DNA of 64,000 nucleotides from Pelagomonas calceolata (lineage: Eukaryota), in assembly GCA_918797485.1 (NCBI GenBank), contig CAKKNE010000001.1:5890001-5954000 (forward strand), in the 5' to 3' direction. Shown here piece by piece: positions 12,639 through 57,166 of the stretch (the stretch's first letter is position 1; each line of letters begins with the position of its first letter). The position numbers and the translations under genes were made by a program. The notes beneath the pieces are model-generated. The model saw nothing but the letters and a program-made list of their open reading frames with translations, did not search any database and was not told the origin of the DNA.

Positions 12639-12749
12639 TTTATTATATGTGTTGGGGCAGCCCCTTCTCCTTTGGGTTTGGAGCCCTGCGACTGCCGGAG
12701 TGTTGCGCTCCCGCTGCGTGCTCTGCGGCGCTGCAAACTCGGGATTTTG

Positions 12750-12772
12750 CTAGTGTCTTACAGGACGCTAGC
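12750..12772 (+). promoter_or_regulatory. CTAG-box upstream motif
   Basis: ctagtgtcttacaggacgctagc in a divergent intergenic region. Confidence 0.6.
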
Positions 12773-12868
12773 TTTGCTCTGCGGCGCTTTGTTTTTCACG
12801 ATACGCTGCAAGGAGCGCCTTTTCGCGCCAGGCATTACACGTTGAAATCCTAGTGAAAAACGCCTACA

Positions 12869-13825
12869 ATGCCGCGCCTTCGCTCGCAGACGCGGATCAC
12901 CGGCGTTTTGCCGCGCGAGCTCCTGCAGCGCAGCCTGGAGTTTTTGCCTGTTCGTGAGGTATACTGCGAGGCGCAGCTCATTTCGAGCGAATTTCTTTCG
13001 GCGTCGCGGCGGGCGCTCACGCGCGGGCGCTGGCGGCCGATGGCGCTCTTCTCCAAGGAAGCCGAGGAGCACCGGAATAGATTTGAATACGGCGCCGACC
13101 TCTCGTCGTGGCACGAGACCTTCAAGGAGGTCTGGGCGCTCGAGCCCGGGGAGGTGTTCTTTGAGCTCGCCTACTGGGACAGTTACCGGTATGCTGCACT
13201 GCGCGCGGGTCAGTTCCTCAAAATAGTGGAGCCGAACATCGAAGGGCTGTCGCGGATCGTCGCCGCCTGCGAGTTAGCGCAAGAGGCATATGATGGTGAT
13301 AACGGAATTGTGCGGCTTGTGGGAAGTTGGGCGAGCAGTCTGGGCCACAAGTTGCGTCTCGGCTACCCCCCGCGTCCCGACTACCACCGACGACTCCTAG
13401 ACCGGGATGCGGAGGATCAATTATTTGGTCTCGGGCTGGAGCGGTGGACGGACCCGAAACTCGCGGCGAGCTTCGTACGGGACGTCCTCGAATACGATGG
13501 TTATTTTGAAGAGGGGGGGATGTATGAAGCTTTGCGTGAGGACTACAATGAGTGGGAGTTTATGGAACCCAGCTACCGGCAGATGCACGAGCGCTGGGCG
13601 AGGGATTGGCGGGATCGCGACAGGGCCGACGCCTTCGTGGCGGAATGCGTGCGGCTTCAGGCGGAGGAGGCGCTAGAACAGGAGAGAGACGAGAGGGAGC
13701 AGTGGGAGGCCCAGCACGGCTGGAAGTACTGCCCGCACGGGGACAAGTACTGGGACTGTCCGCACTGCAGCGACGAGTGGCATGCGGGCTTTGACAACGC
13801 CTCGGGAGACGACGAGGAGGACTAG
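12869..13825 (+). CDS. F-box-like lineage-specific family protein
   Basis: N-terminal LPRELLQRSLEFLP...ISSEF is F-box-like. ALTRGRWRP and EVWALEP are shared with 15979-16980. C-terminal CPH..CPHC. Confidence 0.75.
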   Translation: MPRLRSQTRITGVLPRELLQRSLEFLPVREVYCEAQLISSEFLSASRRALTRGRWRPMALFSKEAEEHRNRFEYGADLSSWHETFKEVWALEPGEVFFELAYWDSYRYAALRAGQFLKIVEPNIEGLSRIVAACELAQEAYDGDNGIVRLVGSWASSLGHKLRLGYPPRPDYHRRLLDRDAEDQLFGLGLERWTDPKLAASFVRDVLEYDGYFEEGGMYEALREDYNEWEFMEPSYRQMHERWARDWRDRDRADAFVAECVRLQAEEALEQERDEREQWEAQHGWKYCPHGDKYWDCPHCSDEWHAGFDNASGDDEED

Positions 13826-15919: not shown

Positions 15920-15978
15920 GCATATGGAGTCATTGTCGTGAACGACGTGCCTAACCGAGGATACGACAACGACAGACG

Positions 15979-16980
15979 ATGGTTCTGACCCGGAGCCAAA
16001 GGACCATCAACGTCCAGAGCTTGCCGCGCGAGCTCTGCGCCCACTGTCTCGAGTTTTTGCCATTTGCTGAAGTGCAGCCGTATGAGCCAAAGGTCACGCG
16101 GTCGTATTTCGGCTTGCGGCGGATTTTAGATGCGAAGCGCGTCTCGAAAAATTTCCGCTCGGCGGCGCGCTATGCTCTGACGCGCGGGCGCTGGCGGCCG
16201 CTGAAGCTGTTTTGCGAGCGGGGCAAAGAGGCGGTACTAGGGCCTCGTATAAATCGCCAACGCGGCGTGCCGCCACCCGAGGTCCCTGAACAGATGCAGG
16301 CCCTGTTCCGGGAGGTGTGGAGCCTGGAGCCTTGCGCGGTCCTCGTCGAGCTGGGTTCGTGGCCTCCAATGGAGACCTGGGGTACGCTCCCCGTACCATG
16401 GTGCGAAGGGCCCGGGCACTTCGAAGGAACCGAAGAGGCCCGCAGGGCTATCGAGGCGGCACTTCGCTACTTAGAAATCGTCGAACCGTGCATCAACGGT
16501 TACGGACGCATGCTCGCGGCGTTCGCTCCGTATCAGCACGAGCGCTTTAAACCAGAGCCTCTGTCGAGGTCTTACTTTGATGCAGAGTTCCTTTTCAAAG
16601 CGTGGTGGTTCAGAGCTAGTCCGGTTGATGAAGATGGAGATGATATAGTCCTGGTCGACGTGCTGTCGGAGGACTCGCTCGCCCCGGCGCTTCGGGCTTG
16701 GGAGATATTTACGGAGGCCGACGTGGGGCTCTACGGCGGCGTGGGTGCACAGGTCGGAGCACAATTTATGATCGCGCGGAACTTCCTTTGGTGGAAATAC
16801 CGGCCTTATCACTCCTTCGTACACCTCGTGCAGAACTACTGGGAGGATCGTCAGTTGGCGAGCATGTTATTAGACGTGCTTTTGGAGTACGGCGAAGGCT
16901 ACGCCATGAACGAGGGTCCGCGGGTCAGCATTTTTCGGAATCGTGAGGGTGAAGACCTGTCGTTTTTTGAACCTTTTTGA
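15979..16980 (+). CDS. F-box-like lineage-specific family protein (paralog of 12869-13825)
   Basis: LPRELCAHCLEFLP...VSKNF, ALTRGRWRP, EVWSLEP and YLEIVEPCING blocks align with the paralog. Confidence 0.75.
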   Translation: MVLTRSQRTINVQSLPRELCAHCLEFLPFAEVQPYEPKVTRSYFGLRRILDAKRVSKNFRSAARYALTRGRWRPLKLFCERGKEAVLGPRINRQRGVPPPEVPEQMQALFREVWSLEPCAVLVELGSWPPMETWGTLPVPWCEGPGHFEGTEEARRAIEAALRYLEIVEPCINGYGRMLAAFAPYQHERFKPEPLSRSYFDAEFLFKAWWFRASPVDEDGDDIVLVDVLSEDSLAPALRAWEIFTEADVGLYGGVGAQVGAQFMIARNFLWWKYRPYHSFVHLVQNYWEDRQLASMLLDVLLEYGEGYAMNEGPRVSIFRNREGEDLSFFEPF

Positions 16981-18335: not shown

Positions 18336-18599
18336 TGCTCCTTGCTAAATGCTCTCTTCCGCTGGGGCGGGCAGCCCTAACTCGATTGATGCGACGATAC
18401 GGTTTGAGGAGTTATGCTCGCCCTCTCTCGCAACCTGCTACGGCTGGCGCACGGCGGGCACTCGTGCCTTGGCAATCAAATGGCAGGCTCTGCCCCTGCA
18501 GCTGCAGGCCGTCTGTGCGGGCCGATCGGGAGGCACTTTTGGGTGCTCGCGAGTCCTATAGACGGGTCGCAGAGAGCTCTGATTGAGAATGACTGCAGG

Positions 18600-18622
18600 C
18601 TAGTGTCTTACAGGCCGCTAGC
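18600..18622 (+). promoter_or_regulatory. CTAG-box upstream motif
   Basis: ctagtgtcttacaggccgctagc upstream of the TLC gene. Confidence 0.6.
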
Positions 18623-18791: not shown

Positions 18792-19742
18792 ATGAGTCTC
18801 CGCACCACACAACTCTCCATCACCCTGGAACGATTACCAGAATGGTTCCAGAGCCACGACCGCGCGCAGTCGCTGCTGCGCGTCGGCGCCTGGGCGGGAG
18901 CCTACTACGCCGTGCACCGGGCGACGTACGCGCTGTCGCTCGTCGCGGCCCCAAAAAACAAGCGCACACCCGGCGGCGTCGATTTAGATGGTCCGGTGCC
19001 GCGCTACGCGGGCTGTTCCCTGCGCAAGGTCGCGGCGGCGCGCGCGGCGTCGTTCGTGCACGCCGTGGGCTCGTTCGCGTGGAACGCGCGGCTCATGCGG
19101 CGGCACTGGAATGTTTTGCGCGACGTGGCGCAGCGACGGCCTGTCGTGAGATTTCTCGGGCGCGCGTTGCCGCTGTTGGCTTATGACGCGAGCAATGAGC
19201 TCCCCGGCGCGCGCGAGGCGTTGTGTTGTTCCTTAGGCTACTTCGTGCAGGAGCTCGCGCACGTCCTCGGCAACGAGCCGGATCCCGTCTTCGTGGCGCA
19301 TCATGCAGCTTACTTGGCGGCAACCTTACCCATCGTCTGCTCGCCGCGGGGCTGGGCCATGGTGAGCCTCGCGACGCTGCTCGCGGAGGTGACGAACCCG
19401 CTCCAGTTGAGCTGGGAGCTCGCGCGCGCCTTCGGCTGCGAGCAGGTCTACGACGCGCTGTCGCCGCTGTTCACCTTTGGGTTTGCAGTGTGTCGCGGCG
19501 TGCTGATGCCGCTGGCCATGGGAGATATCGCGGTGTCGATATTCGGCCGCGACGGTGGCGCGCGCGCGCCCCCGGCCATGCGCTTCGCCTACGGCGTCTT
19601 CTTCGTCGGCATCGGCGCGTCGGGCGTGTGGTTGGCGCAATTGATCCGCGGCTTCCGACGCTACCGGCGGAAGAAGCGGCTCAACAACAACGGGGCGGTG
19701 CCGAAGCCTCCGCGCGACCGGCGGCCGAGCGATTGTATCTAG
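18792..19742 (+). CDS. TLC (TRAM/LAG1/CLN8) domain membrane protein
   Basis: GYFVQEL, FVAHH, AEVTNP and F..CR motifs with several hydrophobic helices. Likely ATG at 18792. Confidence 0.8.
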   Translation: MSLRTTQLSITLERLPEWFQSHDRAQSLLRVGAWAGAYYAVHRATYALSLVAAPKNKRTPGGVDLDGPVPRYAGCSLRKVAAARAASFVHAVGSFAWNARLMRRHWNVLRDVAQRRPVVRFLGRALPLLAYDASNELPGAREALCCSLGYFVQELAHVLGNEPDPVFVAHHAAYLAATLPIVCSPRGWAMVSLATLLAEVTNPLQLSWELARAFGCEQVYDALSPLFTFGFAVCRGVLMPLAMGDIAVSIFGRDGGARAPPAMRFAYGVFFVGIGASGVWLAQLIRGFRRYRRKKRLNNNGAVPKPPRDRRPSDCI

Positions 19743-20889
19743 TATCATTATCTAAAAGTAAGTTGCCGACAGCTAGGCCGCCTAGCCACCGAGCCAACGC
19801 GGCCTGCTTGACGGTCGGGTTTTCGCGCCACCGCAAAACGCCCCGCGGTTGGTGTTTATTTCATGGAAGGACTCAATAGCGATGGAGAGACGTATTCAGA
19901 GGTATCCTCGCATCGACGTCGCGTATCGAATCGTAATCGAGGCGGCAAAGCGAGCAAGCCGTGGTCCCACGCTGGTACACACTTGATACCTGAACAGCGC
20001 TCATCGCAAGCCCACATATCATACAAGAACGCGAGAAAACTTCGACGCGCCTCGCACCGCCAATTTATCGAACAAGCCCATCGCTCACAAATGGGCGCTG
20101 AAGATGGCGATATTAGTTCAAGCCGGACTCGACGCGTCGTGACGCGCTTGTTCGGCGACGACCTGAGGATGCTCGAACGGTTCCAGCACGCGTCCCGTAA
20201 AGCTCCTCCACAGGTCCGCGACGCGACCGTACGGCGACCGGATGCACATGCTGGAGCGCGACGTCCGGAAGACACCGCCTTCTTCTGTACAGCTGGAGAT
20301 TACGGCGCCAACGGCGAAGGCGACGTCCCTTATCCGAAAGATCTTGGGCGCGGCGCCGAAGCGGTCGCGGAGCGAACGCGACGTTCGCGACGAAGCGCGC
20401 GCGGCTCGCCGCGCCGCGCGGTCACCGATGAAGCCGAGGGTTTACGGGTGGCGGGCGCCTCGCCTCTTCACGGCGGATCTTTGAACTCTCCTCGTAACTA
20501 ACCTTGTAGTCATTCATCCCAGTTCGGCACGGGTTTTACAGGTTTTAGAGCGAGCTTTGGCAGTCCATCTGCGTGCTACCTGACTAATAGCGTCCGGTAG
20601 ACGCGGCGACGCGTAAAGCTTTTGCAACATAACGACTTGGAGCCAATACTGAGCGAGAGAGAAGCCCACTTACCGATACCCGGTAGTACTTTATGTAACT
20701 AGGTGATCTCTGCTGAGGTCCGGCCTTGCGGCGTCGGGGGAATTGACATTGCCCGAGAACTCAGTCCGAGCTGCCTCTATCGTGGCAGTGGCTCGGATCG
20801 GAGCTTCGTGCAGCCGTACCAGCCCGCAGCTCGCTCACTGCCACGTTTCATTGCCTAGCCGTTGCCAGCCCAGTGCTGCCCCACAAACG

Positions 20890-23800
20890 ATGGTCGACGC
20901 GGTGCCGACCACCCGCGAAGCGCTGTTGGACCGCATCGAGCGCAGGGCGCCGCAGCAGCGATGGATCGTTGCCGATCGCAACGAGCTCGGGCCATATTTC
21001 TCGTTGTGCCACTTGATTGACGTCCCGCTCGAGACCGTCCGCGCCCTGCTTGGACCGGACGACTGGTTCCGAGCGGAGACGACGTCGCAGCCGAACCAGT
21101 GGATGTTTCGTGTAGCCAGAGCCGATGGTCTGCGGCTCGCCTGTCTCGGAAACTTTCAGCACGTTGTCTGGATCTACATCGACCACAGCGGCGCTGCTCC
21201 CTTGACGCAACCGGGTCACATGATCGACAAATCCAACCCGCTGCGCAGCGGCTGGGCTGCCCTACAAGCCGACGAGCGCGACGCGCTGCGGGCGCGCATC
21301 GTCGACGAGCCTGTTAGATATGGTGTGGATCCGCCGCGCAGGGGCTGGCCCGCGCGCGCCGCGCCGCCGCCGCCGCAGCCGCAGTCGAGGCGGCAGTCGA
21401 CGCGTCGCAGCGTGGGCGCGCCGCGGCGCTCGTCGACGTTTGATGCAAGTGCGCCGCCGCCGCTGCCGTCAGTACGGAAACGGGCAGTACCTCCAGATAA
21501 ATTACCTAAACGGAAGCAGCCCCGGTCCCGCGACGCCGTCGACGTCGCGCCTGCGCCGACGCCATCACCAGCACCAGCACCGACGCCAGCGCCCAACGAC
21601 GAAGGCGCGCGCGGCGCGAAGCGGGTTCTATCGCCGCCGCGGAATACTTCGACGGGGCTCCTGAATACTTCGACGCAGACCACGGCTTCTGGGTGCCTGT
21701 TCGCTGAGAACGCTCGACTTCGAGAGGAGAACCGACGTATATTTGAGTTGTCTTCCCAAGCGGCGGAACGGTCGGCTATGCTCGAAGCGCGAGCTTCCCG
21801 CGACGACGCGCTCGTCGCCGATTTAACAGCGCGCCTCGCGTCGACGGCGCTCGAAGACGACGCAGCGGCGGCCGCGCTACCGTCCGGCCTCCTAGATGCC
21901 TCAAGGGAGCTCGGGCGCCGCATCGCAGCGGCCAACGGACGCGACGCGCGCCGCGAGGCCTTCGCCGCGCTGTACGTGGCGGTCACGGAGAAGAACCGCA
22001 AAAACGGTATGTTGCTGCGCGAGGTCGGGAACGCCAATCTCGGTGCCAGGCCCGAGGATTTGACCGAGCTCAAGCGCTTCGTGACGTCGATTTCAAAGCG
22101 TGAGATGGGCGCCTTGAAAGGCGCCATGGGACGGCGCTACAAGGTGCTCAAAGCACGGAACCGTCGCGTCGGCGTCGGTGCGTACGTCGAAGAGCGCGGG
22201 GAGCTCGTGTCTCTAGATTGGAAGGCAGACCTGGCGATGAAAAAGAGGTACGCACCGCAATTCTATACCATCCTCGAGGCCGCGACACAAGCCCCGTCGT
22301 GGGTCGCCGAGCAGCGCTCGGCGGAGGCGAAGCTCGCGAAGGGCAAGGCCCACAAGGATTGGCATCGCAGGACGTTGCTGAGCGGTCGCGCGCTCAAGGC
22401 CTTCGTCTCGAGGCGTAGGGAGAAGAAGGAGGACGGTCTGGCCTACCTTTTCGACTTCATCGTCAACATGCACACCAACGGCGCTCACGAGATCCTGACG
22501 CCGCTGCACCTCTACTTGGCGCTGGAGCGCACGAGCCACGGCCAGAGCCACGAGTCGCAGGGCCACGACTCGCACTTTAGTGTTGCTGCGTCCTACCGTA
22601 CGACGTACCGGTTGCGGCGGCTCATGTCCGACGCGTACGTGGCGACGTTCCCGGACCGCTTGAATGAAATGCTCGACGCGTCGCCGGCGATCTCGGAACG
22701 CCTCGGGGCGGCGAGGACGCTCCAGCGGTGGAGACACCGTCGCGCCCTCGCGGCGTCTTCCAAGTCGATTGTACGCCAAGTCGCGGCGGCGGTCAAGCTG
22801 CAGTCGTTGGTGCGGAAGCGCCAGAGCGACGCGTCGACCCGCGCGCGCGTGCTCTACGCGTCGCTGCCGGCGGACTTGGCACGACGCGTCGCCGGGCGGA
22901 GAATAGCGCGCGTCATCATCACGAAGCACGACAATTACGCCACGAACACGTCGAAGACGGCGCGCTACATCAAAAGCAAAGGAAATTTGAGGGCAGTCAG
23001 CACGGCGACTGGAACTATTTGCCCGCCGTACGAGAACGACCTCGCGCCGCCGTCCGAGCGCGAAGTCCCCATCAACACGCCGTACGACGGCGCGAGTGTG
23101 CGGCGTTTCTGGAGGGAGCACGGGTCGAAGTGCGTCATGCAAAAAGCACATGGCTCCGAGTTTCCGTGCGTGCTCGACGTCAGCAAGATAGGGCTCGTGA
23201 CGCGCGCCGACGTCGGCCCGCCGAACCGCGCGGAGCACAGACTCCACGACAACAAAATATTACCGCAGATAGAGATGGTGTCGTCGAGCCTCAAGGACCA
23301 CGTCCTCAAATTCTTATTGCGCTACAAGGAGTGGACGTCGGGCCGCATTTTTGAGTCGATTTGGGTCTGGGCCGTCGACACGGAATTTGTTTTGCACAAC
23401 GCGCGCACGCTCGAGATGCAGAAGCCGCCACTCCCGTTCAAGGCCCCCTCGCAAAAGCGGACGCCGGCGATCAAGAGCCAGAAACTCACCGCCGAGAAGA
23501 GGTGCCCGAAGATCAACGTCGACCTCGTGGGCCGCGTCGTCGAGCGGGTCTACCGGACGCAAATATTTCAAGACGACGGCTCCAAAGTGAACAAGGACGT
23601 GGCGTACCGTGGCGTCGTCTTGCGCGTCTACGGCGCTGACGAGGACGACGCGGCGGCGGCGGAGCTCTACGAGCAAAAGAAAACCTGGTATAAGATTGCG
23701 CAGAAGCTGCGCGAGAGGGTTGCCGTGCCGGTTGAGGCCGAATGCTTGTCGACCGTGCGCGACACCCGGGAGGCCGCGAAGCCGAGCTCGCGCTGGATCA

Positions 23801-23919
23801 AGATGGACTGGGGCCCGGGCAACGTGCAGGCCGGCGACGACCTCTTCCTGATGCAGCGAGCGGCGTACGACGTGAGGGACACGGCGACGGGTGTGTGGCG
23901 CGTGTTCAAAGAGCGGTAG
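20890..23919 (+). CDS. Large protein with the putative N-terminal half of an Academ/DUF6589-like DDE transposase, IQ-like motifs and a C-terminal Tudor/SH3-like domain
   Basis: About 1009 aa from ATG 20890. Ordered motifs: FSVAASYRTT, IITKHDNY (D at 22930), SSSLKDHVLKFL, IWVWAVDTEF (D at 23377). The CDS is well supported; the family call is by eye. Confidence 0.55.
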   Translation: MVDAVPTTREALLDRIERRAPQQRWIVADRNELGPYFSLCHLIDVPLETVRALLGPDDWFRAETTSQPNQWMFRVARADGLRLACLGNFQHVVWIYIDHSGAAPLTQPGHMIDKSNPLRSGWAALQADERDALRARIVDEPVRYGVDPPRRGWPARAAPPPPQPQSRRQSTRRSVGAPRRSSTFDASAPPPLPSVRKRAVPPDKLPKRKQPRSRDAVDVAPAPTPSPAPAPTPAPNDEGARGAKRVLSPPRNTSTGLLNTSTQTTASGCLFAENARLREENRRIFELSSQAAERSAMLEARASRDDALVADLTARLASTALEDDAAAAALPSGLLDASRELGRRIAAANGRDARREAFAALYVAVTEKNRKNGMLLREVGNANLGARPEDLTELKRFVTSISKREMGALKGAMGRRYKVLKARNRRVGVGAYVEERGELVSLDWKADLAMKKRYAPQFYTILEAATQAPSWVAEQRSAEAKLAKGKAHKDWHRRTLLSGRALKAFVSRRREKKEDGLAYLFDFIVNMHTNGAHEILTPLHLYLALERTSHGQSHESQGHDSHFSVAASYRTTYRLRRLMSDAYVATFPDRLNEMLDASPAISERLGAARTLQRWRHRRALAASSKSIVRQVAAAVKLQSLVRKRQSDASTRARVLYASLPADLARRVAGRRIARVIITKHDNYATNTSKTARYIKSKGNLRAVSTATGTICPPYENDLAPPSEREVPINTPYDGASVRRFWREHGSKCVMQKAHGSEFPCVLDVSKIGLVTRADVGPPNRAEHRLHDNKILPQIEMVSSSLKDHVLKFLLRYKEWTSGRIFESIWVWAVDTEFVLHNARTLEMQKPPLPFKAPSQKRTPAIKSQKLTAEKRCPKINVDLVGRVVERVYRTQIFQDDGSKVNKDVAYRGVVLRVYGADEDDAAAAELYEQKKTWYKIAQKLRERVAVPVEAECLSTVRDTREAAKPSSRWIKMDWGPGNVQAGDDLFLMQRAAYDVRDTATGVWRVFKER

Positions 23920-24011
23920 GAGCGCTGTAGTTAAGAAAATGTATGTCTTACTTAGATGTCATACTCGATCCGAACGACAGCGCCGGCGCAGGCCCTGGAA
24001 CCGCCTCATAC

Positions 24012-25639
24012 TCATCCGGGCGCCGGCGCCGGCCCAGGCCCTGGAGCGGCCTCGCGCCGCCGTTTCGTCTTAAGCCACGACTCGAGCTGGCCCTCCCAAA
24101 TCGGCATGTTGTCCAACGCGCGTTTGAAGCGGTCGTCGCGCTCCCAGGCCGCATCGAGCTGCGCGTCCCCGGCAGCAGCGCGTAGCGCCGTATCCAAGAT
24201 CCAATTGTCGAGAACCGCGTTCGACTCCTTCCACGACGGCGTCGAGTATAAATCGCGCAGGCGCACGTGCTCGGACGCCTGGGGCTTCCTATTGAACGCT
24301 CGCGCGTCCAGCTCCGCCGTGAGCTGGTGGAGGCCCCCGAGCAGGCCCGAGACGTGGATGTACGTATCGATGTCGGCGACCTGGCGCGCGTGGCAGAAGC
24401 GCCCGAGTAGTGCATTCGTGAGCTCGACGTCCTCCTCGTCGAGGCGCTTGCAGTTTCTAGAGATAAACTTGAGGACGTCGGGGTGCTTGTCCTTGTAGTG
24501 GAGTAGCCGCTCCATATTCAGAAGCATGTATTTTCGGATCAAGGGCTTCGGCGCGGCGCAGACCTGGAGGGTAATGGACGGGAGAGCCTCCAAAAAGCGC
24601 AGCAGATCGCCCTCGACCCAGCTCTGGTAGGGCACCGTCGCGAGCCGCACTTCCACCTCGAAGAAACGCCAGAAGTTCGCAAAAAACGACGAGCGGTCGC
24701 ACGCGGCGGCCACGGCGACTTCGCCGGACCAGGCCACGCCAACGACGGAGCGCCGCGCGCACGACGCGTAGAACGCAGCTTGCAGGTCTGCGTCGTCCTC
24801 GAGCTGCTCAACAATTAAGGACCGTACCGACGCCCCTCCCTTCCATCCGAGCGTCTTGCCGTCCCACCGCAGCATCAGGTGCAGCAAGAGCTGCTTGAGG
24901 CGGTGCAAGTTCATCTTGACGGACTGGTCGCCGCCCTCCTCGACCTTCTCTTCCTCCTGGACCATCACCCAGAGGCGCTCGACGAGGTCCGCCTTCGTGC
25001 CCTGGGTTGCCTTGCCGCGCAGCTCGAGCTGGGCGCGCAGCTCGTCCGGCTCGAGGTCGTCGAGCTCGCGCTTGTAGTAGAAGTGCTGGCGCTGGACCTC
25101 CTCGCCCAGGTTCTCGATTGCGCGCTCGGCGTGGCCGCCCTCGTCGTCCTCGTCGCTCTCGTCGGCCGCGCCGCCCAGGTTGAGCACGTCGAGGGCCGCG
25201 TCGTTGCCTGTGAGAGGTCGAAAGGTCATACAAGGCGACCGCAAAATAACGTACATTCGCGACGCGCCTCGAGCTCGACCTCGTCGTCGCCCAGCTCGTC
25301 GTCCTCGGCCGCAGCGTCGGCGCCCACCTGTGGCGTCGCCGCCAGGGCGGCTTGAGCGGCCGAGGCAGCCCTTGCGGCGCGCGTCGCGTCGAGGGCGGCG
25401 CGTACTTTTTTATCCACGGCTCGCCAACTCTTCCTTGCGTGGGGCAGCACCGTCGTCAGGAGCGGCGCAAAGATGTTCACGATGAAGCCCTTCTCCTGCA
25501 GGATGCTTTCGGCGGCGTGCTTCTGGATGTGGAGCTTGGCCCATGCGATGGTGATGGACGATAGGTTTAAGGGCAGCAGCGCGGACTCCCAGGACCCCTG
25601 GCCGTCCGCCGCGGGCGTCCCCGCCCCCGGATCGGCCAT
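24012..25639 (-). CDS. SAP-domain protein with the putative C-terminal half of an Academ/DUF6589-like transposase (2 exons, 526 aa)
   Basis: A GT-AG intron at 25208-25254 joins two ORFs in frame. ITIAWAKLH; canonical SAP LDDLEPDELRAQLELRGKATQGTKADLVERL; YQSWVEGDLLRFLEALP...HPDV...LDEEDVELTN. Confidence 0.6.
25208..25254 (-). other. 47-nt GT-AG intron
   Basis: Reads gtacgt...ctctcacag. Splicing gives RRE-C-NDAALD in frame. Confidence 0.85.
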
Positions 25640-25796
25640 CGGGGCTGCGCAAATGCGATTTTGCGCCAAGATTTTAGCTAAATTTAGCAAATGCGTTCCC
25701 TCCGGGTTCTAGTAAGAGAAGCCTGCACACCGCGAAACCGCTCGCGAGCGCTGTGCACGATACATGACGCACGCGGCGCGCGGTACGGACGATACT

Positions 25797-27566
25797 ATGA
25801 ACCTGGACGAGACGGTGACCACACCGCCCGAGAGCGAGTCGCGAGCCGATGCTCCCGGTCCGACGTGGCCCCCGCGGCCGCGGGCGTCGGGCGGCCAGCG
25901 CTGGACCGACAGCGACAGCATCAAGCTCAAGGTCGCCTACGACAAGAGTCCGAGCAACTGGACGCTCATCGCCGCGCAGTTCGACAACCGCACGCCGGGC
26001 GCGTGCCGCGACCGCTACCGCACGATGTACGACGAAGCCGACTCGGAGTCCAAGTCCGACGAGAAGCGCGGGCCCGCGGCGGCGCCCGCCGGCGATCAGC
26101 CGCCGAAGAAGAAACGGCCGCCCAGGTGGACGCCGGGCGAGGACGCGGAGCTGCGGCGCCTCCACGCGGAGCACAGTAAGACCCCGTCCAAGTGGGACGT
26201 GATCGCGGCGGCGATCGGCACGCGACGAACAGCGTCAGCGGCCGAGCACCGGTGGGCGATTATCAAGAACAAGAACGCCACGGCGCCGGCGGTCACGCGC
26301 GCGCTCGCGGCGTCGGACGACGACGTGGCCTCCTCGGACTCGCCGACGCCGACGCCGCCGTCGGCCAACGAGGCGCCGCGGCTCGCGGCGCAAACATCAG
26401 TGGACTTGCGCGAGGCGCGGCCACCAGTGGACCCTTCGATAAGGGCTACGGTCGAGCGCATGGTCGCACAGACTGCAAAACCGGACGAGACGCCGTCCGC
26501 CGCCGCGACCGCGTGGATTTCACGGTCCGAAGGCGACGCTGCCGACGCGGCGTCGGAGACGATCGGACGCCTGGGAATCGACCTCGTGTCGACCATGGCG
26601 CGGCCTCCGCTGCCGCCGAGACGCCCGCACGAGCCTCCGCGAAAAACCTCAAAGCCCGGCCCCTGGTTCCAGTTCTGGCTCGAGAACGACGCGGCGGCGT
26701 CGGAGGAGTTTTGGAAGACCCTGGGCGAAACCGAAAAGCGGCCGATCCGCGTGCTCTGGACGCGCAAGTACGAGGAGAGCTTACGGGCTTCGGGCCAGAG
26801 CCCCCGACTCGAAGCGCCGCCGGCGGTACCGCTCGCGACGCAGCAGCGGACCAAGGGCGCCACGACGCCTGACACTGTATCTGAGTCGGTGCCCGCGCGG
26901 GACGAGACGAGCTCGAAGGTGCGCTCTTGCCCGGACTCCGCCGACGAGTCCGAGAAGGAAGCTACCCCACGTGTGTGGGCTCTGTTCGAGGCGGATCCAG
27001 GTATCCAACGGTGGTGGGGCGGGACAGTCGTCGGCGCGAGCGGCTCCGGAGCTTCGCGTGTTCTTGATATTGTGTTTGATGACGGCGAGCGGCTAGGCAT
27101 ACTCGAGCAGCGTGTGAAGACGGAGCAGCCCATGCCGCTGCCCATCAATACCCCAACAGCGGCAGCCAAGAAACTTCTCCGAAAGCTCTCGGGCCGGCGG
27201 CCGAGGAAGCGGGCGCGGCGCTCTACGCCTGTCGCCACCCACGGCCGCTCGACGCGGACGAGACGCGGGCCAGCAAAATCCTACGCCCAATCCGATAGCG
27301 ATAGTGATGACGCTGCCGAACGGCCGCGTCCGCCGCCGCGTTCGCCGGGGCCGCTCCCCAAAGACTCGACGTGCTGCATTTGCCTCGACCCGGTTCTGCG
27401 CCGGCGCGACGCGATCATCTTCGAGTGCGAGCATTTCGTTTGCAAGAGCTGCTCGTCTGATTTGGCCCGGCACACGGCCGAAGCCGGCGCCGTCTCGACG
27501 CGGCGCGGCGTCTCGGTGGCGTGTCCACTTTGTCGGCGGCGGGCGAAGCTCGAGATCTCTAACTAA
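25797..27566 (+). CDS. Myb/SANT x2 + HMG-like + Tudor-like + RING protein
   Basis: Myb: WTDSDSIKL...WTLIA...CRDRY and WTPGEDAEL...WDVIA...AEHRW. HMG-like: PWFQFW...FWKTLGETEK. Tudor-like: VWALF..WWGGTV..IVFDDGE. RING: CCIC...CEHFVCKSC...CPLCR. Confidence 0.85.
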   Translation: MNLDETVTTPPESESRADAPGPTWPPRPRASGGQRWTDSDSIKLKVAYDKSPSNWTLIAAQFDNRTPGACRDRYRTMYDEADSESKSDEKRGPAAAPAGDQPPKKKRPPRWTPGEDAELRRLHAEHSKTPSKWDVIAAAIGTRRTASAAEHRWAIIKNKNATAPAVTRALAASDDDVASSDSPTPTPPSANEAPRLAAQTSVDLREARPPVDPSIRATVERMVAQTAKPDETPSAAATAWISRSEGDAADAASETIGRLGIDLVSTMARPPLPPRRPHEPPRKTSKPGPWFQFWLENDAAASEEFWKTLGETEKRPIRVLWTRKYEESLRASGQSPRLEAPPAVPLATQQRTKGATTPDTVSESVPARDETSSKVRSCPDSADESEKEATPRVWALFEADPGIQRWWGGTVVGASGSGASRVLDIVFDDGERLGILEQRVKTEQPMPLPINTPTAAAKKLLRKLSGRRPRKRARRSTPVATHGRSTRTRRGPAKSYAQSDSDSDDAAERPRPPPRSPGPLPKDSTCCICLDPVLRRRDAIIFECEHFVCKSCSSDLARHTAEAGAVSTRRGVSVACPLCRRRAKLEISN

Positions 27567-27810
27567 CTTTGGTTGTTTGAATAGATCTCGCTGGTCTAGT
27601 GACTATATTGATCTAGGCCGCGAGGCGCCTGAGTCTTTACAAAGCTCGCTCTGCGGTGCTACAAACGCTGCAGACGTGCCAGCATTCGTGGCCACAGCTA
27701 CGATCAAGATCTCTGGCGGGCGGCCTTGCTCGGTGCCGTACGAGCACATATCAGTGAAGTTCGGCTGGTGCCTCCTGTGGTGGGCATCGACGTTCGGGCG
27801 ACGCGCGCTG

Positions 27811-30800
27811 ATGGACGACCTAGACGCGTGGCTGGGGACGAGCCTGGGACCTGAAAACCTTCGGGCCGAGGTAAGACAGGCCTGCGGAGGGTCCTTGGAA
27901 GATCTGCAATCGTGCGAGCTCGAGGATCTCGAGAGCGAACTGTCGCTGAGTACGTGGCCGCCGCTAGAACGACAACGCTTTTTGAGGGCGTGGCGCGAAC
28001 TGAGAGGGGAGAACGACGTCGACGACGCCGACGACGCCGCGCTTGACGACGCCGCGGCCGACACGGACGAGGACGAGCCGGCGGAAGCGCCGCAGCCGCC
28101 GAGCCCGGCGCCGGCGCCGGCGCCGGAACCAGTGAGCCCGCCGCCGCCGGCCTTACCCGCACCTGCTGAGGGACCGCGCTACCAGGTCGGCGATCAAGTA
28201 GAGGCGAGGTGGAAGGGCGGCGAGCGGTATTACCCTGCGCTGGTCCTGGTCGCCCGCGTGGACGGCAGCGTCGACCTCCGCTACACGGACGACGACACGG
28301 AGAGCCGCGTGCACCCCTCGCTGCTGCGACCGCTATCGCGCCGGCGGGGCCGGGCGCGGCGAGCGCCGCCGCCGCCCGCGCCGGTTGCGGAGTCCTCCGA
28401 CGCGGAGTCGGAGCCTGCGCCGGCCGAGCCCGAGCCCCTTGCTTCGCCGATGGCGGAGGAGCCGTCCGACGCCGAGTCGGAACCCGCGGAGCCCGCCCCT
28501 TCGCCGATGGCCGAGGAAGAGCCCGTCGCGCCGGAGTCGGAGCCTGCAGCGCCGCCCGCGCCCATGCCGGAACCGATGGCCCCGGAGTCTGACGAGCCCA
28601 CGGCGCCCGCGCGACCGCCCACGCCAGAACTAGACGTCAAAGCGGGAAAGGAGCGCTCCCGGCGGGAGCAGAGCGAGATGGACCGGGCGCTCGAGGCCGG
28701 GCGCGCCGCGGCGCTTGCGGCCGCGGCGGCGGTTGACGCAGCCGAGGGGTCCGCGGTCGAGGCGACGTCGAACGCGTCGGAGGCCGTTGCGGCGGACCGC
28801 GCGGCGGCCGGCGACCGGGCCGTCGCCGCGGCCGCCGGCGCGCGTGCCCACGCGGCGGGGTCGTGTCGCACGGCCACCGCGACGGTCGTCGACGCGCTGG
28901 ACAAGGCCGATGCTCTGCCGGCGCCGGTCGCGACGACCGAGCCCGAGGCGACGGAGCCGCCACCAATCTCCACGCCGGCGGTAGAGCTGGCGCCGCCCGC
29001 CGCCGCGCGGACGCCGTCGCCCGCGCCCGTGGCGCCCGACGAGCCGGCGCCGATGGACACAACGCCGTCGCCGGCCCATGACGCGCCGGCCGCGGCCGCG
29101 AGCGCGATGGACGTCGACGCGACGGAGACCGCGAGCGTCCTGGACCGCCTCAGAGCGGACATGGTGCGCACCGTCGACATTGCGAGTCGACACAATCGCC
29201 CGCCCAACGTAGACTGGCGGATTGGGCACACCTACAGCTTCCTAGGGGCAATGCATGCCCTGGGCGCCGACACCAGGGCGACGCTCGCTGAAGCTCTTAT
29301 CAGGGGCCGTCGCGGCGAGATTGAGCCCAGCACCGCGCGGCGGGCCGTGGCTCGGATCCTCGACGGGAATCTCAGGACGCTCGAGCGCTTCCAGCACACG
29401 CTCAGGCAAATTAGCGCGCCGATCGCGTCCGCGGCGACAGTGTCGTGGTACGATCCAGCCTCCGGCGTCGATCTGTACGCGTATGCTACTTGTGGTGCTG
29501 CAGCGAAAGAATGGGGCGTGCGCGACGTGGACATCCGCGGATGCGTCGAGGGCAACGTGGACACAGTCAACGGACTGCATTTTCGACGGCAGGCGCGCTG
29601 GCCTGTCCCTCCGGGCGCCGAACGCGTGAGCGAGGGCGTCTATCGCGTCGGAGACGATCGGTACCGCGTGCAGCTCGGCCACGACTGGGGCTTCCTCGGA
29701 AACTTTGATAGTGCTGGAGCAGCAGCGCTGGTGCATGCAGGAGGGTGGGAGCGGCTGCGACACGCGCGGCGCAGCCTCGAGGCGCACACTCTTCGGCAGC
29801 TGACCGAGGGCGCTACGGTTGACCTCAGCGGGTGCTACGTCTTGCTGCGGCGAATCGCCTCAGGCACGAGTTTCCCGACGGCCTTCGCGGTGCGCAAACA
29901 CCGGGTCCCGTTTGCGCCGTTCGACGGGCCCCACGACGCCTACTTCGTCTCTCGGCGTAGGGGGCGGGAGATTCCCTACGGCACGGAACTGTTGAACGCC
30001 CACGTGCAGCGACTTGAACGGGAGCTCACGTGGTGGGATCCGCGGGACCGGTCTCGGGGCCTCTGCGCGCAACGGCTCGTCGCGCGCGACGGCAACCAAC
30101 AATACCACGGATACCAGTACCAGCTTGTACGGCGGGATGGCGACGCCGCCGCTGTCGATGGCGCCGACGCCTCGCTCGTGCAGCTCTGGCGGCGTACGGC
30201 TGTCCCGGCGCCCGTGGCGCCCGCGGTACCGCCCCCACCCGCCGATTGGGCCCAGTGTGCTGCGTGCGACAAGTGGCGAGTCCTACCGGCCAACGTTTCA
30301 GCCGCCACATTATCGGACGACTGGAAGTGTGGCGACATCGGCCTTTCGTGCTCCACGGTGTGAAAATCACGAACTGACGTCGCGTCGATGGCGTGGAGCG
30401 AGACGATGATTCCGCGCAGGTGTTCGAAGGTCGCGTGCTCGCTCGAGGACGCCGACTGTGCGTGTCACCGACGCGGGTGGGACGGCGAAGTGGTGCTGCT
30501 CACTTCTGCGGGCGCCATCACCGCGACGTACTGCTCGCCCGCGGGCGCGGCGGCCGCGCACGGTATGACGTGGCAGGACGCGCAGCGGCGATGTTCGTCC
30601 AAAGCCTTGACGAAAGCGAAGATCGAGTCTAGTACTCCGCCCATCCTGCGCTACGCGACGGCGTGGGATGGCGAAATCAAACGGCGCGAGGCAGCTAAGG
30701 CCGCGACCGAGAAGCGCAAGGTTGCCCAGCAGGCCGCTGCCGCCCGGCAAAAAGACGCGGCGGCAGCGGCTGCCGCCGCGGCGGCCGCGATGGCCGCGCT

Positions 30801-32547
30801 ACGAAAGCCGGCGGAGTGGGCGCAGTGCTCGTCGTGCGAACGGTGGAGGTTACTACCGGAGGGAGCTTCGGCGGCCAGCGACGCCGCTTGGACCTGTGCT
30901 GACGTCGGCGTCTCCTGCGAGAAGGTGCAGTGTTCGGCGGAAGACCCGGAGTGCGAATGTCACGCGCCCGGCGTTGATAGAGCTGTCGTGTCTGTGTCGC
31001 CGGAAGGTCGCATTGTTGAAACCTACTGTTCACCTTCTGGGGCCGCGGCTGCGCTTGGCATGGCTCGGAGCCGCGCCGCCGAGTGCTTAAATACGAGACA
31101 GGTCTCCAAGGTCAATAATGTGCTGCGCTATGCGAAAGACTGGGCCGAAGAAGTCCGAAGCCGTAAAGCGGAGGCGCGGCCGCGCGTTACGTGCACCTTG
31201 TGCCGCAAAGTGCGCGTCGTACCGCCGGGTATTACGATCGAGGACGAGGAGGACTGGAAATGTGACGATGCGCCCGAAAACTGGTTCGCCGCCTCAAACA
31301 CTTTAATGAGGCGCCAGCGCCTATCGTGCGAGACGCGCGAGTGCTCCACTGGCCAGCCGTTCTGCTCGTGTCAGGCAAATATGGGCCGCGGCGTCGATCA
31401 GACGCGTGATGATGGCGTCATCGTGCGACACTGTAGCGTCGCCGCGTGTGCGAGGGCATTGTACCCTGACGCGCCCGACGCCGAGCTCTGGAAGTCAAAT
31501 GTCGTCTCGTGTATCGAGAAGGGCAAACCGTACGCCTACGATAAGGACAACGACGAAAAGGGAAGGGCGTTCAAGGGCTCGACGTTCTCGTGGGCGAGGA
31601 GTGACTGTGCGTATTGCCTAAGCGGCGCGAATCCGGAGACGATATTATTGTGCGACGGCTGGAATTGCGCCAATGAGGCCCATTTCCATTGTGCAGGGTT
31701 AGATGCGATCCCGAGTGGCAAATGGTTCTGCTGCGAGGCGTGTGAGGCGAACCCGGCCCCGGAAGTTAGGTCGCGGAGCGCGCCGACGGGCGATAGGCGG
31801 GGTCGGTGCGGCGCCTGCGACGGCTGCCTCGCAGACGAATGTGGAACGTGCAAGTGGTGCCTCGACCAGACGAAGCGCGGTGGCGCGAACACGCTCCGAA
31901 GGCCGTGCATCTTTCGTCGCTGCGAGCAAGTATACGATGACTCGAAGGCCAGGTTCCGCGCGGCGCGGGGCTCTACCGCGGCGACCGCGCCCGCCGAGGA
32001 GCCCGACGAGCCTGGGCCGGGTACGCGCGTCTGGGCGCTGTTCGACGACGACAGCTTGCCTCAGAGTTGGTGGGGCGGGACGATTATCTCCATTAGTGGC
32101 GTCGCCGAGGAAATGAGGTATGAGGTCGTGTTCGATGATGGCGAGCGGCAGGGCGTCTACGCTGCGCATGTTTTTCACTCGCCGCCGGACGACCCGTTGC
32201 CCGTCTCCGGCCCGAATGCCAAAGCGAAAGCTGTGCTGGAGAAGGCGCTGCCGAAGAAGAAAACACCGGCGCCACGGAAACGGCCAGCCCCGAAGCGGCC
32301 GGCGGCGGACTCCCAGCCGCCATCTCAGCCGCCGCGGCCGCAGATGCCGACCGGGAATTGTCCGGTCTGCTACGAGCCGTTCCGGTCCGGTGAAGTGAAA
32401 TCATTCAATTGCGGGCACCATTTATGTACTACTTGCGGCGAAGCGCTTGCCCGGCACAAGGCCGAGCAGGGCGTGAACACGACGCGACAGGGCGTCCAGG
32501 TCTCGTGCCCACTGTGTCGGAAGCGGGCACGCGTTGGACTGGCGTAG
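27811..32547 (+). CDS. Multidomain chromatin reader / RING protein (SAM, Tudor, NUMOD1-like x4, AP2-like, CW x3, PHD, CXXC, Tudor, RING); 2 exons, 1558 aa
   Basis: An intron at 30360-30419 fuses the two long ORFs. Tudor: VGDQVEARWKGGERYYPA. CW: WAQCAACDKWR. PHD: CAYC...LLCDG.NC..EAHFHC...WFC. CXXC: RCGACDGCLADECGTCKWCLD...CIFRRC. RING: CPVC...CGHHLCTTC...CPLCR. Confidence 0.85.
30360..30419 (+). other. 60-nt GT-AG intron
   Basis: Reads gtgaaa...aactgac...ccgcgcag. Splicing gives CGDIGLSCSTVCSKVACSLEDADCACH, which parallels the internal repeat CADVGVSCEKVQCSAEDPECECH. Confidence 0.8.
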
Positions 32548-36833: not shown

Positions 36834-36996
36834 GGTTTTACCCTGGTGCTCTCTCTTGCTACTGGAGAGCGCAGCGGGCGCGGCGGCGGGCGCAGGGCCT
36901 TTGCGTGCTAGAGGAGGTGCTAGGCGCTGCCTGGAACGCGCGCGCGGGCACGAATAGCGCCGTACGGCCAGCGAAACCACTCACTCCGCTTGTTTA

Positions 36997-37019
36997 CTAG
37001 TGTCTTACATACCGCTAGC
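36997..37019 (+). promoter_or_regulatory. CTAG-box upstream motif
   Basis: ctagtgtcttacataccgctagc, 22/23 identical to 599-621. Confidence 0.6.
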
Positions 37020-57027: not shown

Positions 57028-57143
57028 GATACCACTACAGAAGCGCTTCGACGGGCTGTCGCAGTACTAAGGACGTCTTCTCGTGGCCCTTGTTTCAGCC
57101 AAACGGCAGTCCTTTGGCTTGCAAAGCTGTGAGAGCGTGCTGG

Positions 57144-57166
57144 CTAGTGTCTTACTGGACGCTAGC
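57144..57166 (+). promoter_or_regulatory. CTAG-box upstream motif
   Basis: ctagtgtcttactggacgctagc in a divergent intergenic region. Confidence 0.6.

Follow-up and report, generated by a model that had tools for sequence, protein, structure and literature searches.

Four consecutive genes in a 64,000-nt stretch of Pelagomonas calceolata DNA (the window, whose positions are used for all coordinates below) raise the question of how much of this locus is a transposon. Between the TLC gene, which ends at 19742, and the gene ending at 32581 lie genes A (plus strand), B (minus strand), C (plus strand) and D/E (plus strand), and a preliminary description had read 20547–32547 as possibly one mobile or domesticated unit, a split transposase accompanied by chromatin-reader and RING genes. 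The termini and a 5-bp duplication place the mobile unit instead at 20667–25718. This element is, in our assessment, probably a mobile, likely cut-and-paste DNA transposon with a predicted DDE transposase encoded in two convergent genes, A and B, whose products likely assemble as one enzyme.

Boundaries of the element

A metagenome scan with an alignment of B yielded five loci, L001–L005, from 260 pattern matches. L005 was set aside because its B match spans 30 residues only; the other four of the five hold the element, L002–L004 representing one common insertion site. Six of 24 listed sequencing runs were also compared, with contig depth as the copy measure, a rough proxy for copy number; runs X16–X20, with a share under 0.2, were left out. 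Similarity to the window ends at about 25716 in all four loci and, in L003, also near 20700. The element is delimited by the following features:

20667..25718: transposon, 5,052 bp, from the ends of L001 and L003 homology at the termini and from contigs of runs X9, X3 and X13
20662..20666, plus strand: left copy of the target-site duplication AAGCC, from the sequence
25719..25723, plus strand: right copy of the target-site duplication AAGCC, from the sequence; both copies kept in run X3
20667..20683, plus strand: left terminal inverted repeat, 17 bp, beginning CACTTAC, conserved in L003
25702..25718, minus strand: right terminal inverted repeat, beginning CTCTTAC, from the alignment of the ends
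25677..25688: perfect 12-bp subterminal palindrome, invariant in the window, L001, L003 and L004

The inverted repeats match each other at 12 of 17 positions, and a second short element may follow the left repeat about 12 bp on. In the window and L003 alike, the two ends start differently, one with CA and the other with CT. The palindrome is a candidate binding or promoter site. A repeat search of the window missed the terminal repeats because they are short and imperfect, and they were found by comparison with relatives; the same search detected no termini for any larger unit. The L003 copy is flanked by its own 5-bp duplication, GCCCG, unlike the AAGCC of the window, and a 5-bp duplication is present in both elements (2 of 2) whose two ends are seen; two random 5-mers would match by chance with p = 0.002. 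We rejected a 9-bp duplication (20658–20666 and 25715–25723): this repeat of the window takes in 4 bp of the element and is missing from L003, which duplicates 5 bp only, and the X9 contig of the element includes 25715–25718.

The flanks of L001 and of L002–L004 are unrelated and thus represent different insertion sites. A tblastn search with C, D, E, the TLC gene and the right-hand gene found no match in L001–L003, which include DNA beyond the element, or in the shorter L004. Besides A and B, none of nine neighbouring or flanking proteins matched L001–L004, and 0 of 69 open reading frames (ORFs) flanking L001 and L003 matched the window. Since the termini and the duplication bound 20667–25718 and the neighbours lack a match at the related loci, the element comprises 5,052 bp and holds A and B alone.

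Two further observations concern the ends. Read outward, the termini (25712–25718 and 20667–20673) spell what we take to be a 5′ splice donor-like sequence, through which transcripts reading out of the element could be spliced to genes nearby. The right-end flanks of two independent insertions (L001:897–905 and L003:4050–4061) are both rich in GC and resemble each other at several bases, a hint that insertion may prefer certain targets.

Excision and copies elsewhere

In run X9, one contig corresponds exactly to 20667–25718 with 0 differences; it has a depth of 20.9, against 3–6.7 for the listed flank contigs, and runs on into 30 other letters on the left. Run X13 contains a contig with 412 other letters upstream of 20667, and contigs of both X3 and X13 begin at this position. 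The element contigs of X3 reach depths of 1878–2315 versus 407–572 for flanks including C and D/E. Over X3 and X9, element contigs are about four times deeper than those of C and D/E, which are at the depth of housekeeping flanks. In run X2, which may be the source of the window, a single contig takes in both the left flank and the element, at a depth of 16.2.

One X3 contig (depth 478) jumps from 20670 to 25715, and its length leaves no letters between. The joint therefore retains both copies of the duplication and, between them, 4 bp from the left end followed by 4 bp from the right; another X9 contig stops at 20670, consistent with this footprint. These data indicate that the element excised at the window site and that about four copies lie elsewhere. 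Because the element excises, its domestication, one of the options offered before, is excluded.

Run X2 also holds a separate contig of 3,277 bp whose first 44 bp nearly repeat the right end (window 25673–25718); it is a candidate related or non-autonomous element.

Genes A and B as two halves of one predicted transposase

The coding features of the element are as follows:

20890..23919, plus strand: gene A, 1009 amino acids, predicted N-terminal transposase half, from profile match and conservation
22930–22932, plus strand: D681 of gene A
23377–23379, plus strand: D830 of gene A
23440–23919, plus strand: gene A tail, about 165 amino acids past the break, absent from single-chain relatives
25255..25639, minus strand: gene B exon 1, with the H-x-x-K-H motif and H37 at 25529–25531
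25208..25254, minus strand: gene B intron, 47 nt, GT-AG, 13 spliced reads with 12 starts
24012..25207, minus strand: gene B exon 2, with an acidic linker, SAP, helical insertion domain, E390 (24423–24425) and C-terminal helices

Gene B is annotated as CAH0366814.1, 526 amino acids, on a 6.28-Mb contig, with a complete transcript and its own start, and the annotation files it as a SAP-domain protein. The SAP match has a Pfam E value of 6.5e-5, just under the curated cut-off, and a PDB SAP match reaches 1.1e-6. A profile of seven B-type sequences retrieved 321 proteins at E ≤ 0.001 among 1.84 billion. The best 150 of the 321 were listed; many match SAP alone, and several are long single chains whose N-halves resemble A.

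In the alignment, the motif order is DN, S-x-S-S, D-x-E, H-x-x-K-H, acidic linker or SAP, and E-x-x-N. Gene A follows the single-chain order to about 14 residues beyond the second aspartate and then continues into its own tail, and gene B begins directly before the histidine motif. Profiles made from single-chain rows only match A at residues 497–844 (111 bits) and B at 26–84 (50 bits) and 224–468 (153 bits), with no overlap. A and B are collinear with the halves of the single-chain relatives, and the model of one such relative is transposase-like (see below); the label of split transposase given to these genes was well chosen.

The key residues are conserved. D681 is aspartate in 16 of 17 filled rows and D830 in 21 of 21 (one row being out of frame), H37 is histidine in 35 of 37, and E390 is glutamate in 57 of 63; the second histidine of H-x-x-K-H is found in 31 of 42 rows. 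The third catalytic residue could be either E390 or E386, the latter acidic in 60 of 64 filled rows. As judged from the alignment, the predicted active site is split over two genes, with both conserved aspartates in A and the conserved histidine and glutamate in B. The tail of A is conserved in L001 and partly in L003, with a ratio of nonsynonymous to synonymous substitution rates (dN/dS) of 0.36.

No Pfam transposase family was found in A, B or the relatives scanned (34 relatives, and 87 members for the best 25 of 77 families). Sequence searches of the PDB returned SAP domains or nothing, and an Atlas search gave leads all below 0.9 for B (one to a RAG1 ZnH2 cluster at 0.80) and none for A. 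Pattern scans, sensitive to close relatives only, found no B relatives in viral or prokaryotic contigs.

Predicted fold

P0121, a single-chain relative among the related proteins that carry P numbers, was modelled from 87 sequences, with a predicted local distance difference test score (pLDDT) of 77 and a predicted template modelling score (pTM) of 0.75. Compared with 48,161 chains, the model gave four matches at Z ≥ 8, namely Hermes, P-element transposase and two RAG1 entries. Integrase cores ranked next, aligning with the N-terminal strands and the late helix of the model. The principal matches, with root-mean-square deviations (rmsd), are:

Hermes: Z 10.6, 316 aligned, rmsd 8.0
P element: Z 10.1, 367 aligned, rmsd 6.2
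RAG1: Z 8.3, 317 aligned, rmsd 5.3
Foamy-virus integrase: Z 7.9, 128 aligned, rmsd 3.0, model range 189–748

The predicted fold is RNase H-like and contains a large helical insertion.

Distribution of the split among relatives

Among 39 proteins covering the histidine region, 28 were inspected for their start position. Fifteen of these, a number that includes near-copies, start with a methionine 23–65 residues before the histidine motif and are without the second aspartate; ten contain the second aspartate, one is partial and two are uninformative. The split form is shared with proteins about 40% identical to B. The convergent layout of A and B was seen directly in the window, L001 and L002–L004 only. 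That 15 B-type proteins likewise begin at this break makes an inherited split look more likely than a local lesion.

Trees agree in part. On 326 columns and 30 rows, the four labelled split rows and two fragments form a branch with 100/99 support, which under a midpoint root is nested among single-chain forms. On 81 columns, 13 of 15 split rows group at 90/88. Relative to L003, itself a damaged copy, dN/dS is 0.36–0.64 in all six coding segments of A and B.

Transcription of A and B

Stranded raw reads of run X21 (about 6% of the run), with the strand calibrated on B and C, show that both A and B are transcribed; the reads may derive from any copy of the element. Depth over B is 228–292 and its intron is confirmed, and sense-strand depth over A is 2–13. 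Antisense RNA covers the 5′ part of A:

20679..21400, minus strand: abundant RNA antisense to the 5′ part of gene A, from X21 reads; upstream limit approximate

Antisense depth is 192–233 at 20592–21119 and 80 at 21120–21383, and 21 antisense molecules end at 20679. A coding role of this RNA was considered and rejected: all three frames have stops in L003, and dN/dS is 0.75–1.22.

Neighbouring genes

To the right of the element lie two genes:

25764..27566, plus strand: gene C, two Myb domains, Tudor-like and RING (Pfam); flank-level depth; transcribed on the plus strand
27811..32547, plus strand: gene D/E, Tudor, CW, NUMOD-like, PHD, CXXC, Tudor and RING (Pfam), about 1558 amino acids; flank-level depth

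A predicted 60-nt intron (30360–30419) splices D and E into one frame, and the two are probably one gene. With D and E joined, the count of four consecutive genes stands, but the accompanying statement that all encode DNA- or chromatin-related domains does not extend to A, which has no Pfam family. Above the Pfam cut-off, C has two Myb domains and RING, D has CW and E has CXXC. Matches below the cut-off are Tudor for D and CW, Tudor, RING and PHD for E, which also has a weak NUMOD-like match. Of the domains in the preliminary description, Myb, CW, CXXC and RING were recovered above the cut-off and SAP just under it, with Tudor and PHD of D/E below it. For its HMG-like domain, the Pfam scan of the block genes reported no HMG family.

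Gene C starts 45 bp past the right terminus, so that the element sits just upstream of it. C and E have paralogous Tudor-RING ends (E = 2e-29), and the reader cluster therefore likely arose by local duplication. Contigs of C, D and E are at housekeeping, single-copy depth in three of the three DNA runs compared, and the GC content of the block is not distinct from its surroundings. We therefore take C and D/E to be likely host genes that adjoin the insertion and not, as had been proposed, its cargo. C, D, E, the 19.8-kb ORF and TLC, as delimited here, gave 0 of 6 exact matches in the protein collection, and a pattern scan of viral contigs, which reaches close relatives only, found no match for gene E.

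Left of the element, a 229-codon ORF (19812–20501, plus strand) has a 65-residue stretch in common with gene D (E = 4e-7) and almost no RNA reads; it is likely a decayed fragment of the reader cluster. Within gene D, a stretch at 29630–29740 (plus strand) is without a Pfam match and presumably resembles an AP2-like DNA-binding motif. A stretch of about 22 nt in the predicted D/E intron (30376–30398) is common to dozens of other X2 and X3 contigs, suggesting a recurrent intron motif. Further left in the window, the ORFs 12857–13825 and 15955–16980 (plus strand) begin with similar sequences, which we take to be F-box-like, and are probably paralogs.

The CTAG-box, a motif of 23–24 bp with CTAG at both ends that often lies just upstream of ORFs, is a real upstream motif, and a weight matrix bore out the earlier remark that the block has no clear copy; only a degenerate pair was found there, at 27596–27616. 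CTAG pairs at 17–18 nt spacing occur 14 times in the window versus 0.58 expected, and the CTAG-box pattern matches 6 times versus 0 in 100 shuffles. Examples are:

598–621, 12749–12772, 18599–18622, 36996–37019 and 57143–57166: CTAG-box copies

Because 65–71 other X2 contigs match the copy at 18599–18622, the motif is genome-wide; it is likely a promoter element or a tiny repeat.

A model of transposition and its alternatives

In the mechanism we propose, A would supply D681 and D830, and B would supply H37, the insertion domain, SAP and E390. The two proteins would co-fold, with the glutamate helix of B completing the sheet of A, and would together bind the element ends; we infer that they form a working enzyme. 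Of the two strands, the transferred one would be cut exactly where the element ends and its partner 4 nt further in, with no hairpin on the flank. End joining would then preserve the two duplications along with 4 bp from either end of the element, and the 5-bp duplication would result from integration with a 5-bp stagger. We propose that such a 4-nt staggered cut, and not a flank hairpin, explains the footprint. With B abundant and A scarce and overlapped by antisense RNA, A would be rate-limiting.

More tentatively, the element may represent an undescribed DDE lineage at the level of a superfamily, one branch of which has its triad divided (D, D / H, E). The division would act as a two-key switch, with the E half plentiful, the D,D half held down by antisense RNA, transposition occurring only when both meet, and the cut being hairpin-free with a 4-nt stagger.

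Several points weigh against a transposon driven by its own split enzyme. The footprint is one X3 contig, to which X9 adds only a consistent contig end, and contig depth measures copies roughly. The other copies found are damaged, L001 by a 1.5-kb deletion in A and L003 by a 913-bp deletion and a frameshift, and P0002 and P0013 have a frame change before D830. The fold was modelled on a relative about 19% identical and not on A or B, and B alone folded poorly (pLDDT 39.5). The structural Z values are moderate, and a Foldseek search of the model against the PDB and viral models returned nothing at E ≤ 0.001, Hermes having an E value of 0.34. The dN/dS ratios lie below 1 by a moderate margin only. 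The distant B-type starts are gene-caller starts without genomic context, and A partners of these proteins were not found. On 81 columns, the 15 split rows need two changes, with one origin in 2% of bootstrap trees. Finally, the genome may carry a single-chain master copy at another place.

With such a copy, the element could be mobile but non-autonomous, its halves relics moved by an unsplit transposase encoded elsewhere. Related copies do decay by deletion, and the X2 contig with 44 bp of the right end implies that other elements use similar ends. However, both frames are intact and transcribed with all four key residues kept, dN/dS is below 1 in both genes, and the split is common to proteins as distant as about 40% identity to B, where relics would not have kept it. 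We regard this main rival as unlikely. Alternatively, trans-splicing of the A and B RNAs could join the halves, the active enzyme being a single chain, which would suit the exact collinearity of A and B with single-chain relatives. Yet among 3,816 reads, from about 6% of one run, B's intron is the sole RNA joint listed; the complete transcript of B includes a start of its own, and A runs about 165 amino acids in frame past the break, under selection; trans-splicing seems highly improbable to us.

The larger unit of 12 kb, mobile or domesticated, with the Myb and chromatin-reader/RING genes as anti-silencing cargo, accords with the clustering and mutual relatedness of the chromatin genes, with a block devoid of a clear CTAG-box, and with transposons carrying epigenetic cargo, which are known (PMC12730594). 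It is contradicted for the active element: the termini enclose A and B alone, the related loci are without C, D and E, the contigs of these genes are at housekeeping depth in all three DNA runs, and neither GC content nor any detected termini mark off a larger unit. We find it scarcely credible.

If the split enzyme works, two proteins can together make up a complete RNase H fold, the split point is a natural cut site for conditional or two-component transposase tools, and the element is a model for the origin of multi-gene recombinases. As the family has no Pfam model, annotation misses it. Its movement in cultures of an alga that is abundant in the ocean also makes the element a candidate tool for mutagenesis and a cause of drift among culture lines.

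Comparison with known transposons

PIF/Harbinger, Kolobok with KolX and RAG1/RAG2 likewise have two genes inside the element, but in the two-gene transposons known to us a single chain holds the whole DDE triad, the other gene having an accessory role. The listings of a full-text literature search showed no report of a split transposase or of this element in Pelagomonas, and the family may be named in Repbase. The accessible part of the P. calceolata genome paper does not mention such an element (PMC9481584).

Like hAT (Hermes), P element, MuDR, Kolobok and Dada, the element has a DDE core that is predicted to be RNase H-like and to contain, past the second aspartate, a large helical insertion; it differs from them in its 5-bp duplication, the lack of a Pfam match and the division of the enzyme over two genes. 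As in the C/DxxH group, a conserved histidine stands at the start of the insertion, and the best fold matches of the relative's model are Hermes and P. In contrast to this group, a C or D three residues before the histidine is present in only 5 of 35 rows, the window having A-x-x-H. The footprint, which retains element ends, resembles the product of the staggered cut of the P element, which spans 17 nt (PMC10983969). According to PMC5499845, hAT, Transib and MULE form flank hairpins; hairpins of the hAT and MULE kind would not be expected to keep the element ends.

With Transib and RAG (CMCT), the element shares the 5-bp duplication, an H(3)H motif (H(3–4)H in that clade), asymmetric, possibly bipartite repeats and the RAG1 fold match (Z 8.3, for the relative's model). 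Of the CA..TG termini of CMCT, a CA- start is seen at one end, the other beginning CT. Two convergent genes are present as in ProtoRAG (PMC9435367; also PMC12730594), but the second gene encodes the helical C-half of the transposase and not a RAG2-like kelch protein. The element also differs from AanRAGL, the RAG-like element of the pelagophyte Aureococcus (PMC9435367). The C(2)C motif of CMCT is found within 45 residues before the histidine in 0 of 35 rows, and PDB chains of RAG1 or Transib gave no sequence match.

The motif order (DN, second D, LH, late E) is presumably similar in Academ and in Pfam DUF6589, the latter not being among the best 25 of 77 Pfam families for the 87 members. Academ had no Pfam match as of PMC5751038. 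Its published description sets it apart, with duplications of 3–4 or 9–10 bp and lineages that carry a nuclease or helicase (PMC10045372), unlike the 5-bp duplication here and the absence of any nuclease or helicase Pfam family in A, B or 34 relatives. PMC12730594 gives duplications of 0–3 bp for Harbinger and 7–8 bp for KDZ (Kyakuja, Dileera, Zisupton), unlike the 5 bp found here (2 of 2 elements). The earlier comparison with Harbinger also drew on the Myb gene, which lies outside the right terminus.

Thus, the element departs in defining features from Harbinger, CMCT, the C/DxxH group, Academ and KDZ and resembles the DDE transposases with an insertion domain. It is probably an active, unclassified DDE transposon with a likely split active site.

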